From: Candidatus Woesearchaeota archaeon
Lineage (GTDB): Archaea; Nanobdellota; Nanobdellia; Woesearchaeales; SKIA01
Length of the DNA: 64,000 nucleotides
Direction of reading: 5' to 3'
Assembly: GCA_046704725.1 (NCBI GenBank)
Contig: JBJKRI010000005.1
Coordinates: forward strand, 32,001 to 96,000
The position numbers were made by a program, and so were the translations under genes. This document shows, piece by piece, positions 2,599 to 16,943 of this stretch (position 1 is its first letter; every line of letters starts with the position of its first letter). The notes under the pieces are model-generated. The model saw only the letters and a list, made by a program, of their open reading frames with translations, ran no database searches and was not told where the DNA came from.

Positions 2599-2635
2599 GG
2601 AAACATTTCTTAAGGAAGGCGTGCAGAATAAGCGC

Positions 2636-3220
2636 ATGGGTCGTTCGCGCGCCGGACAATTGCTTGGTCAGATCGTGATCTTCGTAATCGGGTTGGTCGT
2701 GGTCGCTGCGGTACTGGCATACGGCTACATCGTATGGAACGATATCCTCGCGAAGCGTTGCGTGGTCGTCGGTGCGCAGTTCGGTACCGATCTCGCTCAG
2801 GCCATCGATACGAATCGTCAGTGGGGGACCTCGCATCCGGTGACCTTGTCCGCGCCGTGCCAGAGCGTGGATGTGTGCTTCATCGACCTACCCTTCATCG
2901 ACAGCTGGGCTACCGCCGGGACGCAGAGCGGAACTGCATTCCAGCCCTTCAGTTTCATCGGTGCAGGCGCTGTGCAGCCGACCTCTGCGCAGAGGTCCGT
3001 GATGGAGTCGAGTGTGCGGTCTGGAGACCTGACGAACGTCTTCACAATCCAGCAGGACGGCACCGTGCTGCCCGTGCAGAAATTCAACAGCAATCCAGCC
3101 ACGATCGCCGTCCGTAATCAGAACGATTCTGGAAGGGCTGTGTGCTACCCTGCTGTCGGTGGGCAGTTCACCGTGCGTATGGAAGGGAGGGGAGGGCTCG
3201 TCCAGGTCGGGACGCAGTGA
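2636..3220 (+). CDS. Type IV pilin-like protein (class III signal peptide), paralog A
   Basis: MGRSRAG/QLLGQIVIFVIGLVVVAAVL; ATG about 30 nt after a TTTCTTAAG TATA-like box; tandem paralog of next gene. Confidence 0.75.
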   Translation: MGRSRAGQLLGQIVIFVIGLVVVAAVLAYGYIVWNDILAKRCVVVGAQFGTDLAQAIDTNRQWGTSHPVTLSAPCQSVDVCFIDLPFIDSWATAGTQSGTAFQPFSFIGAGAVQPTSAQRSVMESSVRSGDLTNVFTIQQDGTVLPVQKFNSNPATIAVRNQNDSGRAVCYPAVGGQFTVRMEGRGGLVQVGTQ

Positions 3221-3277
3221 GAAGGACGGAGAACAGGAGGAACATTATTTAAAGGGCCTTCGCGGGTCAGAAGACAG

Positions 3278-3862
3278 GTGAGTCGCATGCGCAAGGGGCA
3301 ACTGCTCGGTCATATCGTCGTGTTCGTCATCGGACTGATCGTGGTCGCCGCAGTGCTCTACTTCGGTTATAGCGTCCTGCAGAACATGGGCGTCAAGCGC
3401 TGCGAGGTCGTGCGCGTGCAGTTCGGGACCGATCTCGCGCAGGCCATCGATACGAACCGCGAGTGGGGGACGTCGCATCCGGTGACGCTGTCCGCTCCGT
3501 GCCAGAGCGTCGATATATGCTTCATCGACCGGCCGCTCATCGACGATTGGGCGGCGAACGGCCACAAAGGGGGCTCGGGATTCACGCCGTTCAGCTTCGT
3601 CAGCGAAAAAGCAGTGCAGCCGACGGCGCCGCAGAGGAGCCTGATGGAGACGAGCGTGCAGTCGTTCGACCCGACGAACGTGTTCACCATCCAGCAGGAC
3701 GGCACCGTGCTGCCCGTGGAGAAGTTCAGCGACGTGTCAGCCGCCGTGACCGTGCATAATCCGAGCGATCCAGGGAAGGCGGTCTGCTATGCTGCCGTTG
3801 GAGGGCAGTTCACCGTGCGCATGGAAGGGCAGGGAGGTCTCGTGCAGGTGGGGACACAATGA
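3278..3862 (+). CDS. Type IV pilin-like protein, paralog B
   Basis: RMRKG/QLLGHIVVFVIGLIVV; near-identical to the upstream protein in several blocks. Confidence 0.75.
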   Translation: MSRMRKGQLLGHIVVFVIGLIVVAAVLYFGYSVLQNMGVKRCEVVRVQFGTDLAQAIDTNREWGTSHPVTLSAPCQSVDICFIDRPLIDDWAANGHKGGSGFTPFSFVSEKAVQPTAPQRSLMETSVQSFDPTNVFTIQQDGTVLPVEKFSDVSAAVTVHNPSDPGKAVCYAAVGGQFTVRMEGQGGLVQVGTQ

Positions 3863-4947
3863 GCAGGAAAGGCATCGGCACATTGTTCGTGTGGATATTC
3901 ATCGTCATCGTGGGCGGGCTAATACTGCTCATGTTCTTCCTCGTCGCGCAAGGCCAAGTGCAGGCGGGCAAGTCCAATCTCGATTTCGAGGCGCTCCAGC
4001 AAGTGACGACGATCATCGCGACGCAACAGACGAGCCCCGACACCTATGCGCAAGTGCCTATCCCGAACGACAAGATCACCTTGCAGTGCGAGCTCATACC
4101 GCCGAAGACGATCCTCTCGCAGATCAATATCGGCGGGCAAGGCCAGGACATGACGCATCTGCTGGTCGCAGGGCGCAATATCACCACCGGGCAGCTGGTA
4201 TTGTTCAACAAGGAGTTATGGTTGCCGTTCAGCGTGGGAAACGTCCTGTTCCTGACCGATGACAAGGAGATGCTCGTATTGCAGGACGCGGCGAACGTGC
4301 ACGACGCGAGCCAGGCGCTCATCGCCTTCAACGAAAGCATCCCGTCGGCCGTGGACCGGCGCGTGGATCCGACAGGTTCGGCCATACCGAACGCCGCGGA
4401 CTACCAGAACACGCGCGTCGTCTTGTTCGACCCGCCGCAGGACGTGAAGACGCTCTCGCAGTTCGACGTGCTCGACGGCGCGAAAGCGCAGCTCATGGTC
4501 GTGCGGCCGAGCACCACGGACTGGCGGCAAGCAGGAACCATCACCTTCTACAAGCCCGACCCGACACCCCCTCCGGGCACGCCCGACGCGGTCCTCCCCG
4601 TGAACCCGCCCATCCCGTACGTGGGAGAGACGATGCTGCTCGCGTTCATCTGGCAAGGCGACAGGGACAGCGCCTCATGCCTGCAAGCCAAGATCGCCGA
4701 TCGCATCTCATTGGAATCCACGCTGCAGATGGAGCGCTACGGCATTCTCTACCAGCAGGCCAAGAACGTGCAGGACACGGCGTGCTACGGCGCGTACACG
4801 ACCGGTGCGCTCAAGAACCTACGTGACGTGGGTGGCGACACCTCGAAATGGGCGGGAGCGAACGGCATAGCGGACGCCGTCAATCTTGTTGCTGCGCAGA
4901 ACCAGAACGTCCTGCGCGGCGGAGGGAGCTGTGCGACGATCTACTAA
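3859..4947 (+). CDS. Pilin-like (minor pilin) protein
   Basis: MSRKG/IGTLFVWIFIVIVGGLILLMFF; ATGA overlap with upstream stop. Confidence 0.7.
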   Translation: MSRKGIGTLFVWIFIVIVGGLILLMFFLVAQGQVQAGKSNLDFEALQQVTTIIATQQTSPDTYAQVPIPNDKITLQCELIPPKTILSQINIGGQGQDMTHLLVAGRNITTGQLVLFNKELWLPFSVGNVLFLTDDKEMLVLQDAANVHDASQALIAFNESIPSAVDRRVDPTGSAIPNAADYQNTRVVLFDPPQDVKTLSQFDVLDGAKAQLMVVRPSTTDWRQAGTITFYKPDPTPPPGTPDAVLPVNPPIPYVGETMLLAFIWQGDRDSASCLQAKIADRISLESTLQMERYGILYQQAKNVQDTACYGAYTTGALKNLRDVGGDTSKWAGANGIADAVNLVAAQNQNVLRGGGSCATIY

Positions 4948-5449
4948 GGGGCAGATGCAGGTCCTCGAGACATCGGCGGTCATCCTCGTCTTCGTCGTGC
5001 TCGTGATATTCGCCCTCGCGTGGTTCGCCAAGGCGAACCAGAGCTCATCGAGCTCGCAGCTCGACCAGAGCACAAGACTGGCGTTGCTGGCTACTGCGAA
5101 AGAAGTCATGAACATGCCCGAGCTGCGTTGCAGCATCGCCGGAAAGACGGACAGCACGTGCGTCGATTTGGACCGCGTGAAAGCGTTCCAACGATTGATC
5201 GCCAACGACCCCACGTTCGCCGCGCAGTACCAGGACCGTTTCGCCGGATACAACGTGTACCTACAACTCATCTACCCGCACAGCGAGGCGGTGAGCGGCG
5301 GGGCGACGAGCGTGACCGTCATGTCGTTCGGGCAGAGCACCCAGACCACGCGACGGGTGGCCATACCGGTCATCGCGTACGACCCAGTCACAGGAAAGCA
5401 CATCTTCAGCATGCTCGTGCTCGAGCAGCACACCGGAGGAACCGCATGA
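4931..5449 (+). CDS. Pilin-like protein
   Basis: GTG start after GGAGG; MRRSTKG/QMQVLETSAVILVFVVLVIF. Confidence 0.7.
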   Translation: MRRSTKGQMQVLETSAVILVFVVLVIFALAWFAKANQSSSSSQLDQSTRLALLATAKEVMNMPELRCSIAGKTDSTCVDLDRVKAFQRLIANDPTFAAQYQDRFAGYNVYLQLIYPHSEAVSGGATSVTVMSFGQSTQTTRRVAIPVIAYDPVTGKHIFSMLVLEQHTGGTA

Positions 5450-5964
5450 GCAAGGGGCAGTTCGAGATCATGGGCCTCGCGATCGTGGTGGTCATCATCA
5501 GCGTGGGCATCTTCTTCATGCTCTCCGTCTCGCTGCGTCCCCCCTCGGATCCCGTCTCGCAGGGCATCCACCAACAGTTCGCGCAGAACGTGGTGGACGC
5601 ATTGCTCAAGACAGACCTCGATGGCTGCCCGTACACCGTGCAGGACGCGATCGTCTGGAAAGCGACAGACTCCTACCCGTCCGTGCCGGGGAATCCGCGC
5701 TGCGCGACGCCCGCCGGCCTGGACGACATCATGGGCAACCTCACGCAGGCGATCACCATGTACAGCGGGATGACCTATCATATCGAGATCCGTTATCCCG
5801 CGTGCACCAGCGTGGACAGCAGCCAATGCACCGTCATCTATGAGAAGGACAACGGCTGCAACCCCCTCACGCAGCAGGCGGGACGCCCGGGGATACAGCC
5901 CATACCCACCTGGCCGAAGCCTGGACAGGCCCAGCTCGTGGTCTGGTTGTGCGAACCGCAGTAG
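5446..5964 (+). CDS. Pilin-like protein
   Basis: MSKG/QFEIMGLAIVVVIISVGIFF; ATGA coupling; GGAGG RBS. Confidence 0.72.
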   Translation: MSKGQFEIMGLAIVVVIISVGIFFMLSVSLRPPSDPVSQGIHQQFAQNVVDALLKTDLDGCPYTVQDAIVWKATDSYPSVPGNPRCATPAGLDDIMGNLTQAITMYSGMTYHIEIRYPACTSVDSSQCTVIYEKDNGCNPLTQQAGRPGIQPIPTWPKPGQAQLVVWLCEPQ

Positions 5965-5965
5965 G

Positions 5966-5995
5966 TTTAAATACGCCTTTCGGGAGTGGGAACGC
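5966..5995 (+). promoter_or_regulatory. Archaeal TATA promoter, leaderless transcript
   Basis: TTTAAATACGCCTTTCGGGAG; ATG 30 nt downstream; near-copy at 9851. Confidence 0.65.
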
Positions 5996-6103
5996 ATGGA
6001 CGAGATCGAGACCCGGACGCTCGTGAGCATCGTCTTCGTCATCATCATGATCGTCATCGTCATGGCGGTCCTGTTCGGGAAGCTCAAGGGGTTGCTCGGA
6101 TGA
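5996..6103 (+). CDS. 35-aa pilin-helix-only peptide
   Basis: MDEIETRTLVSIVFVIIMIVIVMAVLFGKLKGLLG; starts 30 nt after TTTAAATA; ATGA overlap with next gene. Confidence 0.6.
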   Translation: MDEIETRTLVSIVFVIIMIVIVMAVLFGKLKGLLG

Positions 6104-6963
6104 GACGCGGCCTCGAGCAGGCGACGGCGGTCGCGCTCGTCTTGTTCCTCGTCTTCGCCATCCTCCTCCTCGGCCTCGGGGCGGAGATCTGGAGCGGGCT
6201 GCGGAACGGGCTGGACATCCAATGCGCCCTCAGCTCGAGCCTGCGAAGCCTCGGCGGCAAGATCTCCATGCAGAACGCTTTCTCGCTGTCGTGCCCGCGA
6301 CGCTTCCTCGACGTCGGCAAGGACACCGTCAAGCTCTCGTACTTCGAGTGGGGGAAGGTCAAGGCCGGAGGGACGTACGCCTACCTCTTCACCGCGAAGG
6401 ACACGAAAGGGGATATCCACCTGCAGTCGAAGACGGCGCTCGACTCCAAGAGCTTCGCTACGGACTTCTCGCGCCTGGCGAGCTACGAGATGCAGCAGTG
6501 CTGGAAGGGATTCGGGAGCGGGAAATACGACGTGACCGGGAGCACGTCGATCTTCTCCGGAAACGCGTGCGTCATCTGCTCGGAGATCTACCTCGACAAG
6601 ACCAGCGGAGCGCCCACGACGACCGTGAACCTCCTAAACGACCTCAACACGATGCACGTGCCGTTCGCGGATTCGGCAGGGACGATGGGCGCGCAGACCT
6701 ACATGCAATACCTCTACGACCCATCGAACCCGTCCGACCCGACCACATGCCTGTCCAAGGACGATATCGACAAGCAGATGGGCGCGATACCGATCGCCTC
6801 CGGAAAGGACTACGCCGTCGTCTTGTACCGCAACGGAGGAAAACTGCAGAGCGCGGTAGGCGCGCCCGGCAAGCTCGTCGGTGCCGGCAATCCCTATTGC
6901 CAGGCGGTGGCGACCATCCCGATAGAACAAGTCTTCCAGGACTGCGACGCGGTCCTCAACTGA
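6100..6963 (+). CDS. Pilin-like protein with Cys pairs
   Basis: MRRG/LEQATAVALVLFLVFAILLL; CWKGFG and CVIC motifs. Confidence 0.7.
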   Translation: MRRGLEQATAVALVLFLVFAILLLGLGAEIWSGLRNGLDIQCALSSSLRSLGGKISMQNAFSLSCPRRFLDVGKDTVKLSYFEWGKVKAGGTYAYLFTAKDTKGDIHLQSKTALDSKSFATDFSRLASYEMQQCWKGFGSGKYDVTGSTSIFSGNACVICSEIYLDKTSGAPTTTVNLLNDLNTMHVPFADSAGTMGAQTYMQYLYDPSNPSDPTTCLSKDDIDKQMGAIPIASGKDYAVVLYRNGGKLQSAVGAPGKLVGAGNPYCQAVATIPIEQVFQDCDAVLN

Positions 6964-6967
6964 TACC

Positions 6968-7771
6968 ATGGCAGAACATCTCAACGCATTGGTCGTCGTC
7001 GTGCTCGCGGCGATACTTCTCCTGCTGCTGCTCGGCGTGTCGGGCATCATCGGCGGCATCGCGAAGTCGAGCGGCGACACGTCGTGCCCGACGAGCGTGG
7101 CCGAACGCGTGCAGGCGCTCTTCGTCACGGACAACGCCGAGCCGCTGCTCACCGGCTGCGACACGCGTACCGCGACGTTCACCAAGGACACGTCGGACGC
7201 GGCGATCGCGAGCCGTATCGCGACGGACTACAGCTGGTGCGCGAACAGCTTCAAGCCGGCGTGGACGCATCCGATCACGCGCAAGTCGAGCGTGTACTGC
7301 CACGTCTGCGCCTACTACACCTATTCCGGGTCGCCGCGTGCGGTGCCAGGAGTGCTGACAGCGCTCCTGGACAACGGTATCGCATCCGACGGAATCAATA
7401 TCACCGGTGTATCATCGCCAGATATCCTGAAGAAGCAGCCGATGCTGCTCGAGAAGAACCTGAGCATCGTCTTCTACCAAGAACGGCAGGACTCGTCGGT
7501 CCTCGGCCAATACTACAAGAAATGGCAGGGCGGCGCTGCCGGAGGGCTCCTCGGCTACGGAGGCGTGGAGCTCGTGGCAGTCGTCCTCCCCGCAATAGGG
7601 TCCTTGCCGGTCACCGCCACCGTGGCGGCGGTCGGCGCGGCGGGCGGCTACCTGTTCGGCGGCTACCTGTTCGACGGGAACACCGTTCACAGCGACATCA
7701 TTATAAGGCCTCTCGACAGTGACATGGTCAATGGCCTCGGCTGCACCACGACGGATGTCCGGCAACCGTAG
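6968..7771 (+). CDS. Pilin-like protein with internal Gly-rich hydrophobic segment
   Basis: N-terminal hydrophobic helix; CANSF/CHVC motifs parallel those of the 6100 gene; GGAAGGLLGYGG...AAVGAAGGYLFGG segment. Confidence 0.65.
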   Translation: MAEHLNALVVVVLAAILLLLLLGVSGIIGGIAKSSGDTSCPTSVAERVQALFVTDNAEPLLTGCDTRTATFTKDTSDAAIASRIATDYSWCANSFKPAWTHPITRKSSVYCHVCAYYTYSGSPRAVPGVLTALLDNGIASDGINITGVSSPDILKKQPMLLEKNLSIVFYQERQDSSVLGQYYKKWQGGAAGGLLGYGGVELVAVVLPAIGSLPVTATVAAVGAAGGYLFGGYLFDGNTVHSDIIIRPLDSDMVNGLGCTTTDVRQP

Positions 7772-7934
7772 GGGGATGGAGACGAGCACGCTCGTGCGGC
7801 TCATCATCCTCACCGTGTTCCTGCTCCTCGTGCTCGGGGCGATGATCGTCATCTGGAAGAACGCGCACGGCGCGTTCTCCGGGTCCAATAGCCTGTGCGC
7901 GAAGACGGGCGGGCTATTCGGGGGCTGCACATGA
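7755..7934 (+). CDS. Small pilin-like protein
   Basis: MSGNRRG/METSTLVRLIILTVFLLLVL; C-terminal Cys pair. Confidence 0.65.
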   Translation: MSGNRRGMETSTLVRLIILTVFLLLVLGAMIVIWKNAHGAFSGSNSLCAKTGGLFGGCT

Positions 7935-8092
7935 GGCGCGGCTCGATCGCTTTCGAGAAGCTCGTGAAATGGGTTCTCGGTGGATTGCTCGCAGTGGTCA
8001 TCCTGTATTTCCTGATCAACCAGTTCAGCCCCAACAAGCAGGGAGTCGTGCATCAGCTCATCGCGCTCCTGGGCCAGGCCAAGAGCCCCTAG
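7931..8092 (+). CDS. Small pilin-like protein
   Basis: MRRG/SIAFEKLVKWVLGGLLAVVILYF (Glu at +5); ATGA coupling. Confidence 0.65.
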   Translation: MRRGSIAFEKLVKWVLGGLLAVVILYFLINQFSPNKQGVVHQLIALLGQAKSP

Positions 8093-8129
8093 CGAAGCGT
8101 TTAAATAGTCTCCTCTCCGGGAGCACTCC

Positions 8130-8408
8130 ATGGAACGCCGCGCCCAGGGCATCTCGCTCAATGTCATCATCATCGCCGCGATATCGCTCGTGGTGCTCGT
8201 TATCCTCGTCGCCCTCGTCTTCAATTGGGGCGGGAACTTCAAGAACGGAACGACCAGTTGCGAAGCGCTCGGTACCAAGGGCGTGGATTATCAGTGCGTC
8301 AGCCCGAATATCGGTGAGCAGTGCCCGACCGGCTGGAAACCATTCGCTGGGCGCACGTGTGCCCAATCGACACCGGACAATCCAAAGACGTGCTGCATCC
8401 CGGTATGA
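8130..8408 (+). CDS. Small pilin with six-Cys head domain
   Basis: MERRA/QGISLNVIIIAAISLVVLVIL; six Cys ending in CC; 30 nt after TTTAAATA. Confidence 0.75.
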   Translation: MERRAQGISLNVIIIAAISLVVLVILVALVFNWGGNFKNGTTSCEALGTKGVDYQCVSPNIGEQCPTGWKPFAGRTCAQSTPDNPKTCCIPV

Positions 8409-8662
8409 GACGCGCGCAAGGACTCAGTCTGAATGTTGTCATCATCGCGGCGATAGCGCTGCTCGTCCTCGTGATACTCGCTGTCATCCTGTCGCGGAGC
8501 GGAGCGATATTCAGCAAACAGACCACCAACGGCTGTGTGGCGAACGGTGGAGAATGCGCAGCGCCGACGAGCCAGATCGCCACCGACCCCGCGAACTACG
8601 TCGCGCATCCAGAATTCACCTGCCCGACCGGACAGACCTGCTACGTGTACCAATATGGATAA
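8405..8662 (+). CDS. Small pilin with four-Cys head domain
   Basis: MRRA/QGLSLNVVIIAAIALLVLVIL; CVANGGEC...CPTGQTC. Confidence 0.75.
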   Translation: MRRAQGLSLNVVIIAAIALLVLVILAVILSRSGAIFSKQTTNGCVANGGECAAPTSQIATDPANYVAHPEFTCPTGQTCYVYQYG

Positions 8663-8897
8663 GGGACAGAACCTGTCGGTGAGCACGCTCGTTCTTGTCG
8701 CACTCGGCGTGCTTATCCTCGTCCTCGCCGCGCTGGCCATCAACAAGTACTGGGGCGGGTTCTCGAGCACCGCACAGGACTGCCATAACCAAGGCGGTAC
8801 CTGCACGCCGTCAGCGCAGTGCGCCAACAGCCAGGTGGATCAGCTCGCCACATGCCCGACGAAGGGAGACGTCTGTTGCGTCGGCACAAGCCCTTAA
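8655..8897 (+). CDS. Small pilin with beta-defensin-like six-Cys head
   Basis: MDKG/QNLSVSTLVLVALGVLILVL; C-x6-C-x5-C-x10-C-x6-CC. Confidence 0.72.
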   Translation: MDKGQNLSVSTLVLVALGVLILVLAALAINKYWGGFSSTAQDCHNQGGTCTPSAQCANSQVDQLATCPTKGDVCCVGTSP

Positions 8898-8922
8898 ATA
8901 GCAGGAATCCGGAGAGCGCAGC

Positions 8923-9141
8923 ATGAACTGGATCGTGGCGGCGGTCATCGCCCTCCTTCTCATCATCATCGGATTCGCGGTCATCCATCAGATACAGAAG
9001 GGGGCGAACGCGTTGCCGAACGCGGCCAGCGGCGTGCAGTGCCGGGTCACGGGCGGGACGTGCGCGACGAGCTGCACGGGCAGCGCGACGGTCGTCGCTG
9101 CGGACTGCGCTGGAGGGACGCAATGCTGCGTGGCCGGTTGA
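8923..9141 (+). CDS. Small membrane-anchored/pilin-like protein with beta-defensin-like six-Cys head
   Basis: MNWIVAAVIALLLIIIGF; C-x6-C-x3-C-x10-C-x5-CC; 30 nt after CTTAAATA. Confidence 0.7.
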   Translation: MNWIVAAVIALLLIIIGFAVIHQIQKGANALPNAASGVQCRVTGGTCATSCTGSATVVAADCAGGTQCCVAG

Positions 9142-9842
9142 ATGGACGTAAGGGACAGGACATCATGGGAGGGCGCATCATCCTCACGCTCCTGCTCACG
9201 ATAGCCACCATCGGTCTCGGGGTCGTCGTCATCGGCATACCGCTCTATCATTCGGTCTTCGGCACGGACACCATCGGCGTGCAACAGCTCGCGCAGCGCG
9301 CGGACTTCCTCGTCCACGGCGGGACGGCGGCGGCATTCGACGCGACCAAACAGGGGACGACGTACGCACGCACAGAATACCTGTTCAGCCCGAACAAGGA
9401 CGTGCTCTTGGTGGGCTTCGGGACGGGACAGAAGACCGTCGACGGCACGAGCAACGCCTTGTACGATCCGTCGCTGGTGCCGTACGGGATCATCCAACGT
9501 CCCGATTCGTGCGGCAAGCAGGCGTGCGTATGCCAGCTCACCTACAAGACGCATTCGCGGACGACCACGCGGAGCGGCTCGGGAGCGGGCAGCACCATCG
9601 AGGTGACAGGAACCTCGTGCTATCCTATCAAGGCGGATACGTTGGGCATCCTGCGGCTCGACAGCACGACGGCCGCGACCGCGGACCAGCACCTCGAGCA
9701 CATGATCATCCCCGTGTCGAAGGGGGACACGCAGTTGCTGGACATCGAGTACGACCCGAAACGCACGCCGCCGACGCTGCTCATCACGCCGCTTCCCGCC
9801 AAGGGAGGGAACTTCTGCTGGGCCTGCCCCAAGCAGCCCTGA
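9138..9842 (+). CDS. Pilin-like protein
   Basis: TTG start overlapping upstream stop; MNGRKG/QDIMGGRIILTLLLTIATIGLG; CGKQACVC motif. Confidence 0.65.
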   Translation: MNGRKGQDIMGGRIILTLLLTIATIGLGVVVIGIPLYHSVFGTDTIGVQQLAQRADFLVHGGTAAAFDATKQGTTYARTEYLFSPNKDVLLVGFGTGQKTVDGTSNALYDPSLVPYGIIQRPDSCGKQACVCQLTYKTHSRTTTRSGSGAGSTIEVTGTSCYPIKADTLGILRLDSTTAATADQHLEHMIIPVSKGDTQLLDIEYDPKRTPPTLLITPLPAKGGNFCWACPKQP

Positions 9843-9850
9843 AGGCCACA

Positions 9851-9879
9851 TTTAAATACGCATTTCGGGAGAGCGCGGC
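9851..9879 (+). promoter_or_regulatory. Archaeal TATA promoter, leaderless transcript
   Basis: TTTAAATACGCATTTCGGGAG; ATG 29 nt downstream. Confidence 0.65.
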
Positions 9880-10701
9880 ATGCGAAGAGGGGAGGTCTCC
9901 TGGCTCACCAACGTCCTCATGCAGGTCGTTCTCGCCACAGCGATCGTCGCGCTCTTCTGGTTCCCCTACCAGCAGGACGCCTTCAACGGGAAGCTCTACC
10001 AGGAGAAAGCCTACACGACGGACAACGCATTGCTCTTGAGCACGCTCCACGCCATCCCATCGGGGACGATGCGCGTGACCTACCTGCTCGACGACCCGTC
10101 ATACACGATCTGGCTCAGTCAAGGGACTGTGTTATTCACGCGCGGCGCCAGTGGGAGCAGCCCCACCAAAGGGATATTCGCGAAGGACCAGGACGTGCGC
10201 ATCTCCCCGTACACGTTCAGCCCGCAATACTTCCAGTATATCAAGACGCCGTCCGATCTCTCCGTACAGGTCGTCGCCCAGGCGGACCAGTGCGCGATGC
10301 CCGCGCAACCCGTGGACTGGAACGGCAAGACCGTCGCGTGGACGGGAGACGCCGAAGCCGCGCGCATCCTCGGCGACGGACTGTTCCGCGTGAGCCCGCA
10401 AGTCGTGAAGGCAAGCTCCAGCACTGCACCGGTGACGACGCTCGACTACACGATTGGGAAGCAATCGGGCTACATCATCGTGCACGGCACCGGCATGGCA
10501 TCCTCGGCTATCGCCTGCCTCGCCGACCAGGAATTCACCGACAGGGGATTGACGCCCGTGACGGTGCGCACGGACCCGACCGTGCAAGGGGTCACGCTCA
10601 GCGTCCCGAAGAGCCATGACACGAACACAGTACACGACGCCATGAGCTGCGCGTACAACCGATTCGTCGCGCCGGAGGTGGTCAAGCGTGGATGTCAGTA
10701 G
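9880..10701 (+). CDS. Pilin-like protein with C-terminal alpha/beta domain
   Basis: MRRG/EVSWLTNVLMQVVLATAIVALF; 29 nt after TTTAAATA. Confidence 0.7.
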   Translation: MRRGEVSWLTNVLMQVVLATAIVALFWFPYQQDAFNGKLYQEKAYTTDNALLLSTLHAIPSGTMRVTYLLDDPSYTIWLSQGTVLFTRGASGSSPTKGIFAKDQDVRISPYTFSPQYFQYIKTPSDLSVQVVAQADQCAMPAQPVDWNGKTVAWTGDAEAARILGDGLFRVSPQVVKASSSTAPVTTLDYTIGKQSGYIIVHGTGMASSAIACLADQEFTDRGLTPVTVRTDPTVQGVTLSVPKSHDTNTVHDAMSCAYNRFVAPEVVKRGCQ

Positions 10702-11140
10702 CTCGATACAATGGATCATCTACATCATGCTCGCGATCGCCGCCACCGTCGTGATCGTGCTCGCCGTCGGCTGGCTGATACCGAACATGGACAGTCCAGC
10801 CATGCGCGCGCAGATCGTCGCCGCGCGCGTCACCTACGGGGGCGGCTACATGCCGGAACCAGGGGTCGTGAACCTCGCCGACTTCAACCAGGCCGTGGCG
10901 GACCGGCACCTGCAGTACTCCGACAGCACGCTCTCGCCGTCCATCGGGGTGCGCGTGACCGTCACGGGAGCGAAGGATCCGATATACTACGACAAGAAGG
11001 CGTATGGCGTCGACAAGACATTCCTCTCCGAGCACGTCAACGGCATCGTGAACGACACCTGGGAACTGCCGGTCGTCGTGGACGACGGGAGGACGCAGAA
11101 GAAAGGAACCCTCCTGGTGGAGGTGCTCTATGCGTCGTAA
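10688..11140 (+). CDS. Pilin-like protein
   Basis: N-terminal helix IQWIIYIMLAIAATVVIVLAVGW; overlaps both neighbours. Confidence 0.65.
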   Translation: MDVSSSIQWIIYIMLAIAATVVIVLAVGWLIPNMDSPAMRAQIVAARVTYGGGYMPEPGVVNLADFNQAVADRHLQYSDSTLSPSIGVRVTVTGAKDPIYYDKKAYGVDKTFLSEHVNGIVNDTWELPVVVDDGRTQKKGTLLVEVLYAS

Positions 11141-11690
11141 GGGGCAGGTCGAGAGCCTGGGGACGATTTTCTGGGGGGCGCTCCTGCTCATCATCTGCCT
11201 GCTGTTCAGCATACTCTTCTGGGTGGTGAACGGGCATCTGCACGACGCGGCCTTCACCAAGGACCAGCGCGTGGACTGGGAGGCGGGATACCTCACGAGC
11301 AGCCTCGCGCGTTCTCTAGTGACTGTGGACGGCAAGACGGAGAGCTTCGCCACATACCTCGACACGCACCAGGGAACGCTGGACCAGAACCTCGTGCAAT
11401 CGCATCTGGACGCCTTCCGGGCATCCGTGCACATCCCTGAGAGGAAGGTGCTCCTCTTCGTGTCGGTCAAGAAGACCTACATCTCCTCCGTGGACGAAGG
11501 TTTCGACTCGTCGACAGAGAGCATCATCGCGTCGCTTGGGACCACGCAAGGAGAGAACACCCTCGCAGCGAACATGTACAACACCCCTGCGCAGTACGGC
11601 GACCTGTCCTTCGTGGAGCTGCCCGGAGGGATGGGGATCGGCGCGATAACCTCAGGCACGGACAAGCCAGTCACCGGAGGGCCCGCATGA
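11130..11690 (+). CDS. Pilin-like protein
   Basis: MRRKG/QVESLGTIFWGALLLIICLLF; GGAGGTG RBS. Confidence 0.7.
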   Translation: MRRKGQVESLGTIFWGALLLIICLLFSILFWVVNGHLHDAAFTKDQRVDWEAGYLTSSLARSLVTVDGKTESFATYLDTHQGTLDQNLVQSHLDAFRASVHIPERKVLLFVSVKKTYISSVDEGFDSSTESIIASLGTTQGENTLAANMYNTPAQYGDLSFVELPGGMGIGAITSGTDKPVTGGPA

Positions 11691-13978
11691 GACGCGGACA
11701 GATCTCCTATTTCCCCGTCGTCCTGACGATCGGCGTGACGATCATCTTCGCGCTCGTCCTGGGGCGCTTGCTCGTGGCGGGGCAATTCGACGGCCACCCC
11801 CCAGCCATCGGCGAGAAGCAGGAAGCGGTGCTGCGCGCCTATAGTCGAGCGGATGATATCCGGTTGTACGCTCAGCAGGCCGCGCGGGAGGCCGTGGCTG
11901 AGGCGGAGAAGAGCGGTGACTTCGCAACGCCCATCGCCCAGCGGGCGGCGACGCGTTTCACCGCCCTCATGCGGCAATATCCGTTCGCGAGCATCACTCA
12001 GATGTTCAACGCCAAGCAGGAAGGCGACAGGATCGTCTTCACCTCCGACCAGGATTTGTCAGTTCCCGTCGGCACCGCAGGTGCGGCGACCACCTCTGCG
12101 CCGTCCGGTGCGGGCGTCCTCACGGTCTGGCCGACCGACCATCACGTCATCACGAGCCTTTTCGGCTGGCGCAAGGCGCCGCAGGGAGGGAGCACGTACC
12201 ACCCGGCAATCGACATCCGCGGAGCGGTGGGAGACCCGGTGTACGCCGTGGCCGATGGGACGGCCATCGCAGAGAAGGCGAAGCACCTGCTCCAGCTCAC
12301 CTTGCCCGACGGCTGGACGTGCTGGTACCTCCACATCGACCCGACGGCGAACGGACCTGTCACCGCGGGGGAGAAGGTCGCGACCGTCGGGAACATCCCC
12401 GGCGTGGAGCACCACGTGGACCTGCGCTGCTTCAACGACGCCCTGCTCGGCCCCACACTCGCTGAGAATCTCTGGCCGAAAGACTACGTGAAGGACGGAG
12501 CTGCGACCGGCGACCTGCAATACGCCATCATCTACGACAAGCACGCCTTCGTGGACCCGTACTGCCTGTTTACGCCAGCGCTCCAGCAAGAGGCACTGCA
12601 GAGCGACCTGAAGGACCCGACGCTCGTGGCCGATACGACCGGCTTCACCAAACGGCCGGGCGGGGATGTCGCGACCAAGCTGCAGGACACCTGTCAAGCG
12701 TACGCGGCGCAGCACCTGCTGGCCGCCGCGCAGACGACGAGCGCTTCGACGTCGAGCCCTCCCGTGTCGAACACCGTGCTGCAGAAGACGCTCTCCAACC
12801 TCAAAGACCAACAGGAGCAGGGAAAGAGTCTGTACCAGTGGGTGCAGGATACCGCGAAGAGCGCAGGGGTCGACCCGAACCTTGTCATCGCGGTCATCGC
12901 GCAAGAGAGCCAGGGGGTGATCGACGCGCAAAGTAGGACCGGCGTGCAAGGAGTCATGCAGGTCACCTGTACCACCTTCCAGGACACGTTGCACGTATCG
13001 ACCTGCGACAAGCGCGCCGATCCCGTGCTCAGCATACAGGCGGGGACGTACTATCTCGCGGGCCTGTGGAAGAAGTACGACGGCTACACGCAGCAAGCGG
13101 CATTCACGGCCGCGAACTACAACGGCGGCGGGATGGTGCTGGTCGCCGTCAAGCGCGCAGGAAGCGACCCGTCCTATGACGCCGCGATGGCGCGGTTCAC
13201 CCCGCAGCTCCTCAGCGCAGCCCCCGGATACGCCGGCTGGACCCCGCAGCAGCTCGCCGCGAAAGTGAAGGAGACGACGGACTACGGGAGAAAGGTGTCC
13301 GGGTACTACGGCATGCTCGGCGGAGCGGTGGCTCCCGGCGGAACGAGCCGCACCGATATCGGGACGTACACCTTCGCGCTCATGGTGAGCGCCCCGATTG
13401 ACAAGAGCTACACCGACGTGCTCGACCTGCGAAGCACGCTCTCGAGCTGCGGGACCACCGGTTGCGTGACCCAAGCGTTGCAGCGCAGCGGCGCGACAGC
13501 GTGCTCCGACTACGCGTCAGAACTGCAACGCACCATCACCGAATGTCAGCAGGACCAGGACCAGCACGTCTGTGGCTGCCCGATACCCCTGCCGCCGCTG
13601 GGCGTCGACGCGAAAGTCACACCCGAATCGATACTCATCGGAAAGACCACGACGCCAGTGCAATGGATCGTGCCGCCGGGGGACGCCGTCATCCACGTGA
13701 CCTTCTCCTTGCCGGATACAAACGACCCGCTGCACCCGATCACAGGGGACACGCTCACGCTCTCGGGAACGACGGTCAGGCTCACGGACAGCGCAAACAC
13801 CATCCTGGGCGGCGCTTCCGGGACGCTCGGCACACAGGGCATTATCTACGCGACGAGGCAGCCCGACGGACAGACGCTGCGACTGACGAACACGACGGTC
13901 GGAGCGTGCTTCGCCGGCTATGCGAAAGCCTATTGCCTGGACGGTACGCGCTTCTGGGTGACACAGCAGGTGCCGTGA
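11687..13978 (+). CDS. Pilin-signal protein with M23 metallopeptidase and soluble lytic transglycosylase (SLT) domains
   Basis: MRRG/QISYFPVVLTIG; M23: ITSLFGWR...HPAID...PVYAVADG...YLH...HHVD; SLT: AVIAQES, GVMQV, GTYYL, ANYNGG, ETTDYGRKV. Confidence 0.85.
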   Translation: MRRGQISYFPVVLTIGVTIIFALVLGRLLVAGQFDGHPPAIGEKQEAVLRAYSRADDIRLYAQQAAREAVAEAEKSGDFATPIAQRAATRFTALMRQYPFASITQMFNAKQEGDRIVFTSDQDLSVPVGTAGAATTSAPSGAGVLTVWPTDHHVITSLFGWRKAPQGGSTYHPAIDIRGAVGDPVYAVADGTAIAEKAKHLLQLTLPDGWTCWYLHIDPTANGPVTAGEKVATVGNIPGVEHHVDLRCFNDALLGPTLAENLWPKDYVKDGAATGDLQYAIIYDKHAFVDPYCLFTPALQQEALQSDLKDPTLVADTTGFTKRPGGDVATKLQDTCQAYAAQHLLAAAQTTSASTSSPPVSNTVLQKTLSNLKDQQEQGKSLYQWVQDTAKSAGVDPNLVIAVIAQESQGVIDAQSRTGVQGVMQVTCTTFQDTLHVSTCDKRADPVLSIQAGTYYLAGLWKKYDGYTQQAAFTAANYNGGGMVLVAVKRAGSDPSYDAAMARFTPQLLSAAPGYAGWTPQQLAAKVKETTDYGRKVSGYYGMLGGAVAPGGTSRTDIGTYTFALMVSAPIDKSYTDVLDLRSTLSSCGTTGCVTQALQRSGATACSDYASELQRTITECQQDQDQHVCGCPIPLPPLGVDAKVTPESILIGKTTTPVQWIVPPGDAVIHVTFSLPDTNDPLHPITGDTLTLSGTTVRLTDSANTILGGASGTLGTQGIIYATRQPDGQTLRLTNTTVGACFAGYAKAYCLDGTRFWVTQQVP

Positions 13979-14030
13979 ACGGAAATACCGGGCATAACCT
14001 ATTTATAGGGCGCTTCCGCCCCTTCTAGAC

Positions 14031-15086
14031 ATGCTGAACATGCCCGTGGGGGACGTCAAGAAGAAGATCCAGGAGCAGGCGGGCCTCACGCAGGAGCAGA
14101 TCGAGGAGCGCATCCAAGAAAAGATGCGACAGCTCGCCGGGCTCATCAGCGAGGAGGGCGCCTGCCACATCATCGCGAACGAACTGAACGTGCAGCTCGT
14201 GCCGGCGCCAAAGGACCGGACGGTCAAGGACCTGCTCCCAGGCATGCGAGATGTCCAGCAGGACCTGCGCGTCATCCAGGTGTACGAATTGCGGACCTTC
14301 AAGAGCAAGTTCAGCGACGGCGAGGGAAAGGTCGCGTCCTTCCTGGGAGGCGACCCGACCGGCGTCATCCGGGTCACGTGCTGGGGAGACCTCGCGGACA
14401 AGGCCGCGTCGCTCAAGCCGCAGCAGGTCGTGCGCGTCAAGAACGGGTACGTGAAGGACAACAACGGCCGCGCGGAGCTCCATCTCAACGACAAGAGCAC
14501 GCTCGAGGCCGACCCGAAAGGAGTGACCGTCGAGACGGCGGGCCGGCGGGAGAACGCCGAGTACGCGCGGCGACGCGTGAACGAGCTCTCGCAAGGGGAT
14601 TTCCGTGTCGAACTGCTCGGGACGGTCGTGCAGGTCTACGACCCGCGTTTTTTCACGCGAAAGGACGGCACGGACGGCGCTGTGGTGAACGTCCTGCTCG
14701 ACGACGGCACGGGGAACGTGCGCATCGGCTGCTTCGACGCGCAAGCGGCGACCGCGCTCGGCCTGGAGCTCGAGAAGCTCTTGGAGCGGAAGGAAGGCTC
14801 GTTCGACGAGGAGAAGACCGCATTATTGGGCAATATCGTGAAGGTGCGCGGGCGCGCCAAGCTCAATACCGTGTACAACAGCATCGAACTCACTGCGGAC
14901 AGCCTCGAGACCGCGCCGGACGCTGCCGAAGAGCTCGAGCGGCTCGGCGTGCAGGACGCGCCGAAAGAGCGGGACTCGGAGCCCGAGGACATTGTGACGG
15001 TCGAGGAGGACGTCGAGGTGGAAGAGGACGCCGTCTCGCTGGACGACCTCGAGGATATCGACCTGGACGACCTCGACACGCCATAG
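14031..15086 (+). CDS. rpa: Replication protein A-like OB-fold ssDNA-binding protein
   Basis: GLISEEGACHIIANEL N-domain; OB folds GDPTGVIRVTCW and LDDGTGNVRI; acidic tail. Confidence 0.85.
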   Translation: MLNMPVGDVKKKIQEQAGLTQEQIEERIQEKMRQLAGLISEEGACHIIANELNVQLVPAPKDRTVKDLLPGMRDVQQDLRVIQVYELRTFKSKFSDGEGKVASFLGGDPTGVIRVTCWGDLADKAASLKPQQVVRVKNGYVKDNNGRAELHLNDKSTLEADPKGVTVETAGRRENAEYARRRVNELSQGDFRVELLGTVVQVYDPRFFTRKDGTDGAVVNVLLDDGTGNVRIGCFDAQAATALGLELEKLLERKEGSFDEEKTALLGNIVKVRGRAKLNTVYNSIELTADSLETAPDAAEELERLGVQDAPKERDSEPEDIVTVEEDVEVEEDAVSLDDLEDIDLDDLDTP

Positions 15087-16097: not shown

Positions 16098-16943
16098 GTG
16101 GTCCTCGAACACCTCTTCCCGGAAGACTGGCTCGAGAGGAAACCGAGATACGCGTTCATCCTTGGGGTTGTCTATAGCATCGTCGGCATCCTGGTCGCGC
16201 GGCTCTTGTTCCCCAGCGACCCCGCACTGGTCGCGGTGGCCTTCATCAGCATCCTGCTGCTCCCTGAACTGCGCAAGATATTCGCCATCGAGGAGCGCCA
16301 GGAGCGTCATGACAAGCGCGTGAGCCTCAAACGATTGTGGAGGGACGACCACGACGTCATCGCCGTGTACCTCTGCCTGTTCCTGGGCATCTTCATCGTG
16401 TACGCTCTCGCGACAGTGTGGCTGCCGTCGTTCTCCGTCAACGCGTTGTTCCGGCAGCAGCTCGCGTACCGCGGAGCGGCGTTGGGCAATGCGGCGGGAA
16501 CGGGCGTGTTCTGGAGCATCCTCTCCAACAACATCCTCGTATTGCTCGGCGTCTTCTTGTTCGGATTGCTCGCGGGGGATGGAGCTATCTTCCTGATCGC
16601 GTGGAACGCCTCGGTGTGGGGCACCTTGTTCGCGGCGAGCGCGCGCAGCGCGAGCAGCGTGCTCGGCGGAGCGCCCATCTGGTTGCTCGGATTGGTATTG
16701 CTCATCGTCTTGCCGCACATGCTGCTCGAAGCGACGAGCTACATCATGGCCGCCATCAGCGGCTCGCTCATCAGCAAGGGGGTGGAGAAGGAGACGGGAA
16801 AGGTGCAATCGAAGGTGCTCAACTACAATCTCGTCCTGCTCGGACTGTCGCTGGTGGTACTGCTGGTCGGGGTGCTCGTCGAGACCTGGGTGCTCGGGCA
16901 CGTCACGCTCTACCAGCGCATCATCCAGGCGGGGCTGCACTGA
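16098..16943 (+). CDS. SpoIIM/DUF95-family membrane protein
   Basis: ILSNNI, WNASVWG and LPHMLLEATSY motifs. Confidence 0.8.
   Translation: MVLEHLFPEDWLERKPRYAFILGVVYSIVGILVARLLFPSDPALVAVAFISILLLPELRKIFAIEERQERHDKRVSLKRLWRDDHDVIAVYLCLFLGIFIVYALATVWLPSFSVNALFRQQLAYRGAALGNAAGTGVFWSILSNNILVLLGVFLFGLLAGDGAIFLIAWNASVWGTLFAASARSASSVLGGAPIWLLGLVLLIVLPHMLLEATSYIMAAISGSLISKGVEKETGKVQSKVLNYNLVLLGLSLVVLLVGVLVETWVLGHVTLYQRIIQAGLH

Follow-up and report, generated by a model that had tools for sequence, protein, structure and literature searches.

A row-terminal woesearchaeal protein joins a class III-like N-terminus to M23 and SLT domains and may act on foreign bacterial murein

Introduction

Large extracellular proteins with an SLT domain have been reported from Woesearchaeota and Pacearchaeota and proposed to bind or degrade bacterial cell walls (PMC8204110, as family fam00969, citing Rinke 2013 and Castelle 2015; PMC9723730, Vigneron et al. 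2022, as GH23; also PMC10936187; each as given in the portions of text available). Here we describe a gene from a Candidatus Woesearchaeota archaeon (assembly GCA_046704725.1) whose product combines such an SLT domain with a class III-like N-terminus and an M23 peptidase domain. The gene, hereafter the hydrolase gene, occupies positions 11687..13978 (+) of a 64,000-nucleotide stretch that was analysed whole and that we call the window (contig JBJKRI010000005.1, positions 32,001 to 96,000); coordinates prefixed C4 to C7 refer to contigs of the assembly, C5 being the one that holds the window. Lineage, SLT/GH23 domain and a proposed wall-attacking or wall-binding role are shared with the published proteins. 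M23, pilin and pili occur nowhere in PMC8204110 and PMC9723730, and in the portions available neither a class III signal nor the replacement of SLT by GH108 described below is mentioned; their supplements may list the family.

Modular type IV pilins provide a second point of comparison. As far as the available text of Raynaud et al. 2021 (bioRxiv 10.1101/2021.01.27.428410) goes, PilB and PilC of Streptococcus sanguinis likewise have a class III-type N-terminus, a small module, a linker and grafted modules, and as in the family described here the cargo varies on one carrier. Those proteins are bacterial and have a proven pilin fold, a Glu at +5 and proven incorporation into filaments, whereas in our protein no pilin fold is recognised and the cargo is enzymatic. 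The words 'hydrolase' and 'archaea' do not occur in that preprint.

Wall-opening enzymes on surface machines are closer in domain order. PrgK of the pCF10 type IV secretion system (LytM-SLT-CHAP; PDB 8s0u) also places an N-terminal anchor before LytM/M23 and then SLT, and 8s0u is among the Foldseek matches of our full-length model, at rank 48. According to the accessible part of its description, the LytM domain of PrgK holds no metal, and its SLT domain alone is active, as a muramidase (bioRxiv 10.1101/2024.02.15.580431). PrgK opens its producer's own wall, has a degenerate LytM domain and carries CHAP; the archaeal protein, in contrast, comes from a cell with no apparent wall of this kind, conserves its M23 residues and ends in another C-terminal domain. 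Phage tail-associated lysins and internal virion proteins (phi29 gp13-like, T7 gp16-like, PRD1 transglycosylase) similarly combine M23 and lysozyme-like or lytic transglycosylase modules, on a structure that meets the target cell from outside, whereas the hydrolase gene belongs to an archaeal cell and sits in an operon conserved on the chromosome.

Archaeal M23 enzymes aimed at bacteria also have a precedent. In the text available of PMC12352652, zoocin A-like M23 proteins of Halobacteriales are secreted peptidoglycan hydrolases that pair M23 with PG_binding_1 and kill bacteria, and M23 homologues are noted in four Nanoarchaeia genomes. Our protein differs from these in its class III anchor, second glycosidase module and conserved operon. 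The words peptidoglycan, M23, transglycosylase and hydrolase do not occur in a 2026 survey of archaeal type 4 filaments (PMC13705601), nor do any of the terms searched in Makarova 2016 (PMC4858521). We found no published description of a class III-signal M23-SLT/GH108 scaffold, of its place at the end of a gene row, or of the HxD/Cys-pair clade described below; the supplements of PMC8204110, PMC12352652 and PMC13705601 may list the family or the locus.

Domain architecture

The hydrolase gene is a single ATG-to-TGA frame of 763 residues plus stop, and its ATG overlaps the upstream stop codon by 4 nt (ATGA). Its GC content at third codon positions (GC3) is 0.84, against 0.83-0.89 in the neighbouring genes. 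An earlier note, made from the letters of the window, had proposed that one polypeptide unites a class III-like N-terminus, M23 and SLT in an archaeon. Pfam and the archaeal small- and large-subunit rRNA of the genome agree; every motif listed in that note is found at its place, and the search for PF01551 and PF01464 that had been set beforehand as a check returned both above cut-off.

These two families, M23 and SLT, are the only Pfam matches at E <= 0.1. Peptidase_M23 (PF01551) covers residues 171-237 (E 3.1e-7, 30.9 bits against a cut-off of 28.7) within an M23 (LytM-type) metallopeptidase domain that spans residues 147-250 (12125..12436, +), as delimited by Pfam, PDB profile matches, Foldseek and a check of alignment columns. 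SLT (PF01464) is stronger, at residues 387-483 (E 1.3e-17, 63.8 bits against 21.3), within a GH23-type lytic transglycosylase domain of residues 362-543 (12770..13315, +) that is also found by PDB sequence matches, Foldseek and PHROGs. NCBIfam gave partial matches only, all under cut-off, to MltF and other murein-enzyme models. Between the two enzymes lies a conserved helical extension (residues 251-345; 12437..12721, +), seen in both alignment and model, in which C293 (DPYC) and C336 (TCxAY) are invariant in all 33 aligned rows.

The SLT domain carries the motifs of its family. Lytic transglycosylases of this kind have a catalytic Glu-Ser and GLMQ-like and AYNxG motifs, and here a Glu-Ser pair (E407-S408, in QESQG 406-410) is followed by GVMQV (422-426), ANYNGG (476-481) and ETTDYGRKV (529-537). 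The Glu column is filled in 17 of 17 SLT rows (E-S in 16, E-T in the other), and xxMQ and YNxG are kept. PDB sequence matches of this part are LtgA and MltF, and its best Foldseek matches among lytic transglycosylases are 5o2n, MltE, MltC, Slt and MltF. Since the SLT domain of PrgK is a muramidase, the product chemistry of the archaeal one may not be deducible from its family.

Structure comparison of the whole protein points the same way. An AlphaFold2 model built on a 33-row alignment has a mean pLDDT of 82.9, with low-confidence linkers at residues 131-141, 347-357 and 551-557; in it the M23 domain occupies residues 155-250 and the helical extension residues 251-341. Against the PDB, Foldseek lists 102 matches at E <= 1e-3, and the top ones are all lytic transglycosylases or M23 enzymes. 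Against viral models (BFVD) there are 120 matches at the same threshold, mainly phage M23 and lytic transglycosylase tail lysins, the top one spanning 452 columns, and the PHROGs matches are lytic tail proteins. The parallel with phage tail lysins drawn in the earlier note therefore holds at the level of domain folds.

The protein ends in a Cys-containing, mostly beta domain to which no fold is assigned (residues 559-763; 13361..13975, +), delimited by alignments and model. Eight of the 14 Cys residues of the protein lie beyond residue 587; C620, C629, C631 and C741 are conserved family-wide. A search of this domain against the protein Atlas gave no usable match.

The genome that encodes this enzyme (1.18 Mb in 8 contigs, 99.69 % complete) yielded no match to the PBP Transpeptidase domain or to FtsW/RodA. 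A single weak Mur_ligase_M-like match is present, in a family that also matches two control archaea without murein. Own murein is thus apparently absent, so that the enzymes would have to act on something foreign, and the likely substrate, judged from these gene contents, is foreign bacterial murein. On balance we consider it probable that this small-genome archaeon of the Woesearchaeota type (DPANN), which has no murein itself, exports the protein as a hydrolase that directs two enzymes at bacterial murein.

How such a protein might work can be sketched. The MRRG leader would probably be removed by the single A24 prepilin peptidase of the cell. The hydrophobic helix would then hold the protein in the membrane, or feed it into a type-IV-filament-like assembly of the upstream pilin-like genes, while flexible linkers would string the carrier module, the M23 endopeptidase, the SLT domain and the Cys-rich C-terminal domain outside the cell. 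Upon contact with a bacterial partner, host or prey, M23 may cut peptide cross-links and SLT glycan strands, opening a local hole in the wall. What the analysis shows directly are the domain identities, the conserved active-site residues, the class III-like motif, the place in the operon with its conservation, and the lack of PBP or FtsW/RodA matches. That the protein is an exported murein hydrolase aimed at foreign walls is predicted from these results; we infer one step further that the leader is cleaved, that the protein is exposed on a filament or at the surface, that its enzymes are active and that bacteria are the targets.

The M23 metal site

The metal-site motifs of the M23 domain are H172-x3-D176 (HPAID, 172-176), H216 (YLH, 214-216), at the place of the central catalytic His, and H243-x-D245 (HHVD, 242-245). 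H172-PAI-D176 and H216 align with mHnGIDI and YgH of the solved M23 enzyme 9gy1. The C-terminal motif departs from the canonical HxH: it reads H243-V-D245, with Asp in the column of the second His, which in M23 enzymes is a zinc ligand. Foldseek places the domain among M23 enzymes, including 6muk, 9gy1 (TMt 0.66, rmsd 3.2 over 117 columns) and LytM 2b13 (TMt 0.58, rmsd 3.1).

The substitution is a clade-wide trait. We used two alignments, one of 18 rows (A1, a clade with HxD throughout) and one of 33 rows (A3), with pairwise identities given relative to our protein. In that same column, HxD occurs in 20 of the 33 rows and HxH in 13, the sister clades being HxH. Across the 18-row clade, at 20-34 % identity, D176, H216, H243 and D245 never vary, and 17 rows retain H172. 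The Cys pair C212/C248 is found only alongside HxD, and one HxD row lacks it. Because HxD marks a whole clade and accompanies a Cys pair, it is unlike decay, and we file the M23 part as an HxD variant of the M23 fold, a non-canonical member. Asp is a competent zinc ligand. The concern, voiced in the earlier note, that HxD damages the M23 site is weakened by this conservation in the HxH column; activity as such stays a prediction.

A family with exchangeable glycosidases

A word-index homologue search recovered only the protein itself. An exhaustive search returned 1564 proteins at E <= 1e-3, of which 49 reach E <= 1e-10 and 14 reach E <= 1e-30; the best matches are 726-1065 aa long and align from the extreme N-terminus. 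The same architecture recurs in relatives at 20-39 % identity, and since the gene also resembles its neighbours in GC3, the domain combination is beyond chance. Together these proteins form a family of at least 30 clusters on one scaffold, newly described here. Invariant positions in the 18-row alignment include G42, Y61, D176, C212, H216, H243, D245, R247, C248, C293, C336, C620, C629, C631 and C741.

Within the 18-row clade the M23 domain is constant and the glycosidase is not. Pfam finds M23 in all 18 rows (best E 1.4e-14), GH108 in 14, PG_binding_3 in 9 and SLT in three, these being our protein and its two closest relatives; one member (P0023) matches M23 only. The GH108 muramidase profile (PF05838) gave no match in our protein, and none was found elsewhere in the genome by a search that was also silent in control genomes. 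In the wider set with a shared N-terminus (P0016, P0019-22, P0024-26, P0036, P0064 and others), Pfam mostly finds M23 plus SLT, and SLT only in P0022 and P0026.

A maximum-likelihood tree of scaffold residues 38-345 (32 rows; P0102 was left out as too short) groups the HxD rows, except P0016, into one clade of 19 with support 100/98. The tree tags all non-SLT rows 'GH108', a label wider than the 14 of 18 rows in which Pfam finds that domain. This clade holds the non-SLT rows as well as the three SLT rows, which branch at its base in an order that the tree does not separate, and both sister clades are entirely SLT. On the simplest reading of the tree, SLT would be ancestral and was swapped for GH108 plus PG_binding_3 within the HxD clade. 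That one murein glycosidase takes the place of another on a shared scaffold suggests that the protein acts on murein.

Two broader searches add little. An order-wide profile search matched 29 of 151 genomes at E <= 1e-8, nearly all over the M23 part only, and so says little about the full architecture; a pattern-based locus search built from a family alignment gave 47 pattern matches, of which 0 were confirmed.

The N-terminus and the carrier module

A class III signal, the substrate of prepilin peptidase, consists of a short, basic leader with G or A as its last residue and then a stretch of about 20 hydrophobic residues. The hydrolase fits this rule. Its basic leader MRRG (residues 1-4; 11687..11698, +; MRRGQ with the next residue) has a putative cleavage site after G4 with Q at +1, and continues as QISYFPVVLTIGVTIIFALVLG. 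The hydrophobic N-terminal helix (residues 5-31; 11699..11779, +), a predicted membrane or filament-core anchor, is helix 4-31 of the model, with pLDDT 92 and 83 in blocks 2-3. A K/R/Q-G/A pair immediately before the helix is kept in nearly all 33 aligned relatives, which exceeds what the positive-inside rule demands and fits a prepilin peptidase site; the genome encodes a single A24 prepilin peptidase. A class III-like signal is thus supported, as a prediction. Neither Pfam nor NCBIfam returned a curated profile for pilins or for class III signals.

Behind the helix lies a lineage-specific carrier module (residues 38-130; 11798..12076, +), modelled as a pair of helices (43-75, 83-96) with a beta-hairpin or small sheet (strands 107-128). 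Its motif IGxKQxAxLxAY...YA..AA is conserved, and G42 and Y61, invariant in the 18-row alignment, are kept in at least 90 % of the 33 rows. Modelled separately, the module reaches pLDDT 87.8. In related loci it occurs alone, fused to other cargo or to none. A predicted complex of the module with the soluble parts of the three upstream proteins scored 0.00, a value that bears neither for nor against binding.

The locus and its conservation

The hydrolase gene is the last of a row. From position 1 to 13978 of the window all genes are on the + strand, and many have a class III-like leader or an N-terminal hydrophobic helix. Immediately upstream are genes for 186 aa (11130..11690, +; class III-like, MRRKG/QVESLGTIFW..., a slash marking the putative cleavage site here and below), 150 aa (10688..11140, +; N-terminal hydrophobic helix; overlapping both neighbours) and 273 aa (9880..10701, +; class III-like, MRRG/EVSW...), all syntenic in two genomes of the same genus; those starting at 10688 and 9880 overlap their neighbours by 11 and 14 nt. 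The rest of the row runs over 2621..9842 (+), with class III-like or N-terminal-helix genes starting at about 2621, 3278, 3859, 5446, 6100, 6968, 8130, 8321, 8655, 8923 and 9165. No Pfam family was above cut-off in the row neighbours that were scanned. By our own crude and strict rule, which misses several obvious cases, the genome has 81 class III-like open reading frames (ORFs); 7 lie within the 10.7 kb that end at the hydrolase gene (C5:35278-45978), where about 0.7 are expected, and an eighth, at C5:26045, lies outside them.

This position recurs. Two genomes of the same genus (G002, G004) have a homologue, 27-28 % identical to our protein, last in the same row and followed by an RPA-like gene, and the three genes just upstream are there too at 21-29 % identity. 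In a genome of the same family (G006) a homologue again precedes the RPA-like gene, and the upstream side lies beyond the contig end. Beyond this family, 11 loci elsewhere in the order were examined; in them, too, a large ORF that starts in class III-like fashion closes such a row, and in five of them the RPA-like gene comes next.

We anchored a wider survey on the RPA-like gene and scanned upstream with HMMs made from blocks of our own alignment (E <= 1e-5). The best 80 loci come mostly from records of Candidatus Woesearchaeota, Nanoarchaeota or Nanoarchaeia. Of the 60 loci with at least 3 kb upstream, which include the records of G004 and G006, 31 show a same-strand ORF next to the RPA-like gene that matches a family HMM; these ORFs range in composition from the carrier module alone (196-297 aa) up to carrier module, M23, SLT and C-terminal domain. 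At least three class III-like ORFs occur upstream in 38 of 49 loci (median 5) and downstream in 1 of 39 (median 0). With varied or no cargo across loci, the module behaves as a carrier, and the cluster is a lineage trait, not a one-off transfer. Some anchored loci that have both the Woesearchaeota-type RPA gene and a pilin-like row (e.g. L041-L043, L087, L108) are labelled Methanosarcinales, Aminicenantes or Dehalococcoidales, probably through mislabelled bins or contigs.

Two other origins were considered and rejected. A bacterial contig or contamination does not fit a 273-kb contig whose RPA-like flank is syntenic with Woesearchaeota records and on which the hydrolase gene has the GC3 of its neighbours. 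Nor does a recent phage origin fit three upstream genes without a PHROGs match and a locus conserved across the lineage; Pfam scans of the neighbours showed no phage genes around the hydrolase gene.

Several features flank or belong to the row. Tandem small genes (about 70-120 aa) at window 8130-9141 (+) are class III-like (RRAQG/ISLNVIIIAAI..., MDKG/QNLSV...), have Cys-rich C-termini and give weak, sub-threshold 'defensin-like' Pfam matches; similar genes are found in two related loci (L031, L032), and they are candidates for the major subunits of a putative filament. Just upstream of the row, window 1-2598 and C5:16594-34598 hold a run of genes for secreted proteins of great length (1009, 1217 and up to about 1580 aa) with Ig-like, fn3 and DUF7107 signals, which may be adhesins of the same surface system. 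Directly 3' of the hydrolase gene, the RPA-like OB-fold gene (14031-15086, +; Pfam tRNA_anti-codon OB, E 6.7e-14) follows a 52-nt spacer with a TATA-like box, TTTATA, at 14003-14008. Its N-terminal motif LSGLISEEGA is strongly conserved, 591 relatives were retrieved, and it marks the end of the row across the lineage. Further downstream is a SpoIIM-family membrane protein gene (16098-16943, +; PF01944, E 1.7e-11), and a similar gene follows RPA in G006 (L027 4397-5284). GC at the syntenic locus is 0.45 in G004 (L025) and 0.38 in G002 (L026), against about 0.61 here. The syntenic row proteins share only 21-29 % identity, compared with 57-60 % for the RPA-like neighbour; the row of surface genes evolves very fast.

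Elsewhere in the genome, a second and weaker SLT protein (C5:644-1831, in L023; 395 aa, Pfam E 2.9e-5) has no class III-like start, and a second M23 match (C5:260507-260686, in L003; 53 bits) lies in a frame of only 90 aa. Archaellin-like genes (.../EMGVGTLIIFI...) occur at C4:71249, C5:160365, C6:96899 and C6:170416-172334, and at C7:28264-37072 the single A24 peptidase of the genome (C7:28264-28614) shares a locus with a T2SSE ATPase and a T2SSF protein of two domains; with these, this small-genome archaeon may be motile. Among 36 tRNAs, ARAGORN reports a 96-nt 'tRNA-???' with a four-base anticodon (C5:231656-231751) and a 93-nt tRNA-Tyr(ata) (C5:269574-269666), most likely misread intron-bearing archaeal tRNAs.

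Alternative readings

Several observations weigh against a displayed two-enzyme hydrolase of bacterial walls, and we set them beside the alternatives they favour. Two concern the reading as a whole. The pTM of the full-length model is 0.49, so the relative placement of the domains is uncertain. Of the 60 anchored loci, 7 have M23 within 5 kb upstream, 15 have SLT there and 1 has GH108; hydrolase cargo is thus not universal at the locus, and wall cutting is an add-on rather than the core function of the cluster.

The next group concerns display. Foldseek against the PDB gave 0 matches at E <= 1e-3 for the carrier module (38-130). In a wide VIA-align search its best Z was 5.8, with an archaeal conjugation pilin at Z 5.3 and PilJ at Z 4.5 (rank 31), none above background. 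This is an absence of match and no evidence of a new fold; 'pilin' in the structural sense, the word used in the earlier note, is not supported by it. About ten poorly modelled residues part the hydrophobic helix from the module (pLDDT < 50 at 32-37, helix resuming at 43). The locus (34.6-46 kb on C5) holds neither an assembly ATPase nor a platform gene; the nearest are at C5:202.6-205.5 kb, about 157 kb off on the same contig. The archaeal pilin context is therefore borne out in part: the gene ends a class III-like row and an A24 peptidase is present, but the locus itself brings no ATPase or platform. Given the unmatched fold, the weak stretch after the helix and the missing genes, we infer filament display rather than observe it.

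The same enzyme might instead be tethered by its helix as a signal anchor, or in a bindosome-like manner, with the class III-like N-terminus serving only anchoring or processing and no filament at all. Sugar-binding proteins of Sulfolobus carry class III signals yet are not pilins, and the three findings on fold, stretch and locus just given all suit such a tether. Two others speak for a filament: small, pilin-sized class III genes stand in the same conserved row, and three ATPase-plus-platform pairs in the genome could act in trans. Genome-wide, T2SSE ATPase matches number five and T2SSF platform matches six at three loci, so that A24 peptidase, ATPase and platform are all present, all outside this locus. 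We regard a mere tether as possible, at rather less than an even chance.

Activity of the M23 domain is the second point of doubt. HxH is replaced by HxD and metal binding is a prediction; the Pfam match is marginal, covering profile positions 2-75 of 96 and ending ahead of HHVD; and one clade member, P0013, is without the first His. The glycosidase could then be the only catalytic part, with M23 a LytM domain that is degenerate or that serves in regulation or binding, like those of PrgK or EnvC, and PrgK, in the part of its description available, has the same LytM-then-SLT order, a metal-less LytM and activity in SLT alone. Yet all five active-site positions hold residue types that bind metal or catalyse, four of them invariant across a clade at 20-34 % identity, and the sister clades retain the full HxH. 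An inactive M23 domain accordingly seems to us unlikely, though worth keeping in mind.

Improbable, in our view, is a freely released bacteriolysin, or a scavenging enzyme that digests free murein as food with no cell-cell contact. Archaeal peptidoglycan hydrolases that kill bacteria are on record (PMC12352652, in its available text), and phage endolysin-like families match the SLT part. A released enzyme fits poorly, however, with the N-terminal hydrophobic anchor and the conserved place in a surface-protein operon, and neither AnmK nor Amidase_2, for use of the products, was found in the genome.

As far as is known, every cultured DPANN archaeon has an archaeal host, which tells against a bacterial target and would favour action on an archaeal polymer, either the cell's own envelope or the pseudomurein of an archaeal host, as would the one Mur_ligase_M-like match; we consider this very improbable, since M23, SLT and GH108 are murein enzymes, PG_binding_3 accompanies GH108 in 9 of 18 relatives, no PBP or SEDS genes for wall synthesis were found, and the Mur-ligase family also matches two control archaea without murein.

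Discussion

Woesearchaeota SLT proteins were already known. New are the scaffold family, the GH108 swap, the HxD/Cys-pair clade and the recurring place at the row's end beside an RPA-like gene. The terminal protein of a conserved cluster here carries exchangeable murein-cutting modules behind a prepilin-type signal. With SLT swapped for GH108 on a common scaffold, the family clearly exemplifies how an archaeal surface protein exchanges modules. The HxD/Cys-pair M23 clade is a natural experiment on the limits of variation in the LytM zinc site.

We tentatively suggest, as a bolder and less secure proposal than the hydrolase itself, that Woesearchaeota share a lineage-wide contact organelle resembling a type IV filament, whose last-encoded, pilin-like carrier bears exchangeable cargo (none, SLT, M23 plus SLT, or M23 plus GH108) and which, in members such as this one, drills through bacterial peptidoglycan. 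If this were true, many Woesearchaeota would be episymbionts or predators of bacteria rather than of archaea, and the HxD/Cys-pair M23 would add a new metal-site variant, an active one, to the LytM fold.

Which hosts Woesearchaeota have, and how DPANN archaea breach the envelopes of their partners, are open questions for which this locus gives a concrete, clonable handle. If the enzymes are active, their specificity for cross-links and glycan strands could indicate the type of bacterial wall they meet, and hence the host.

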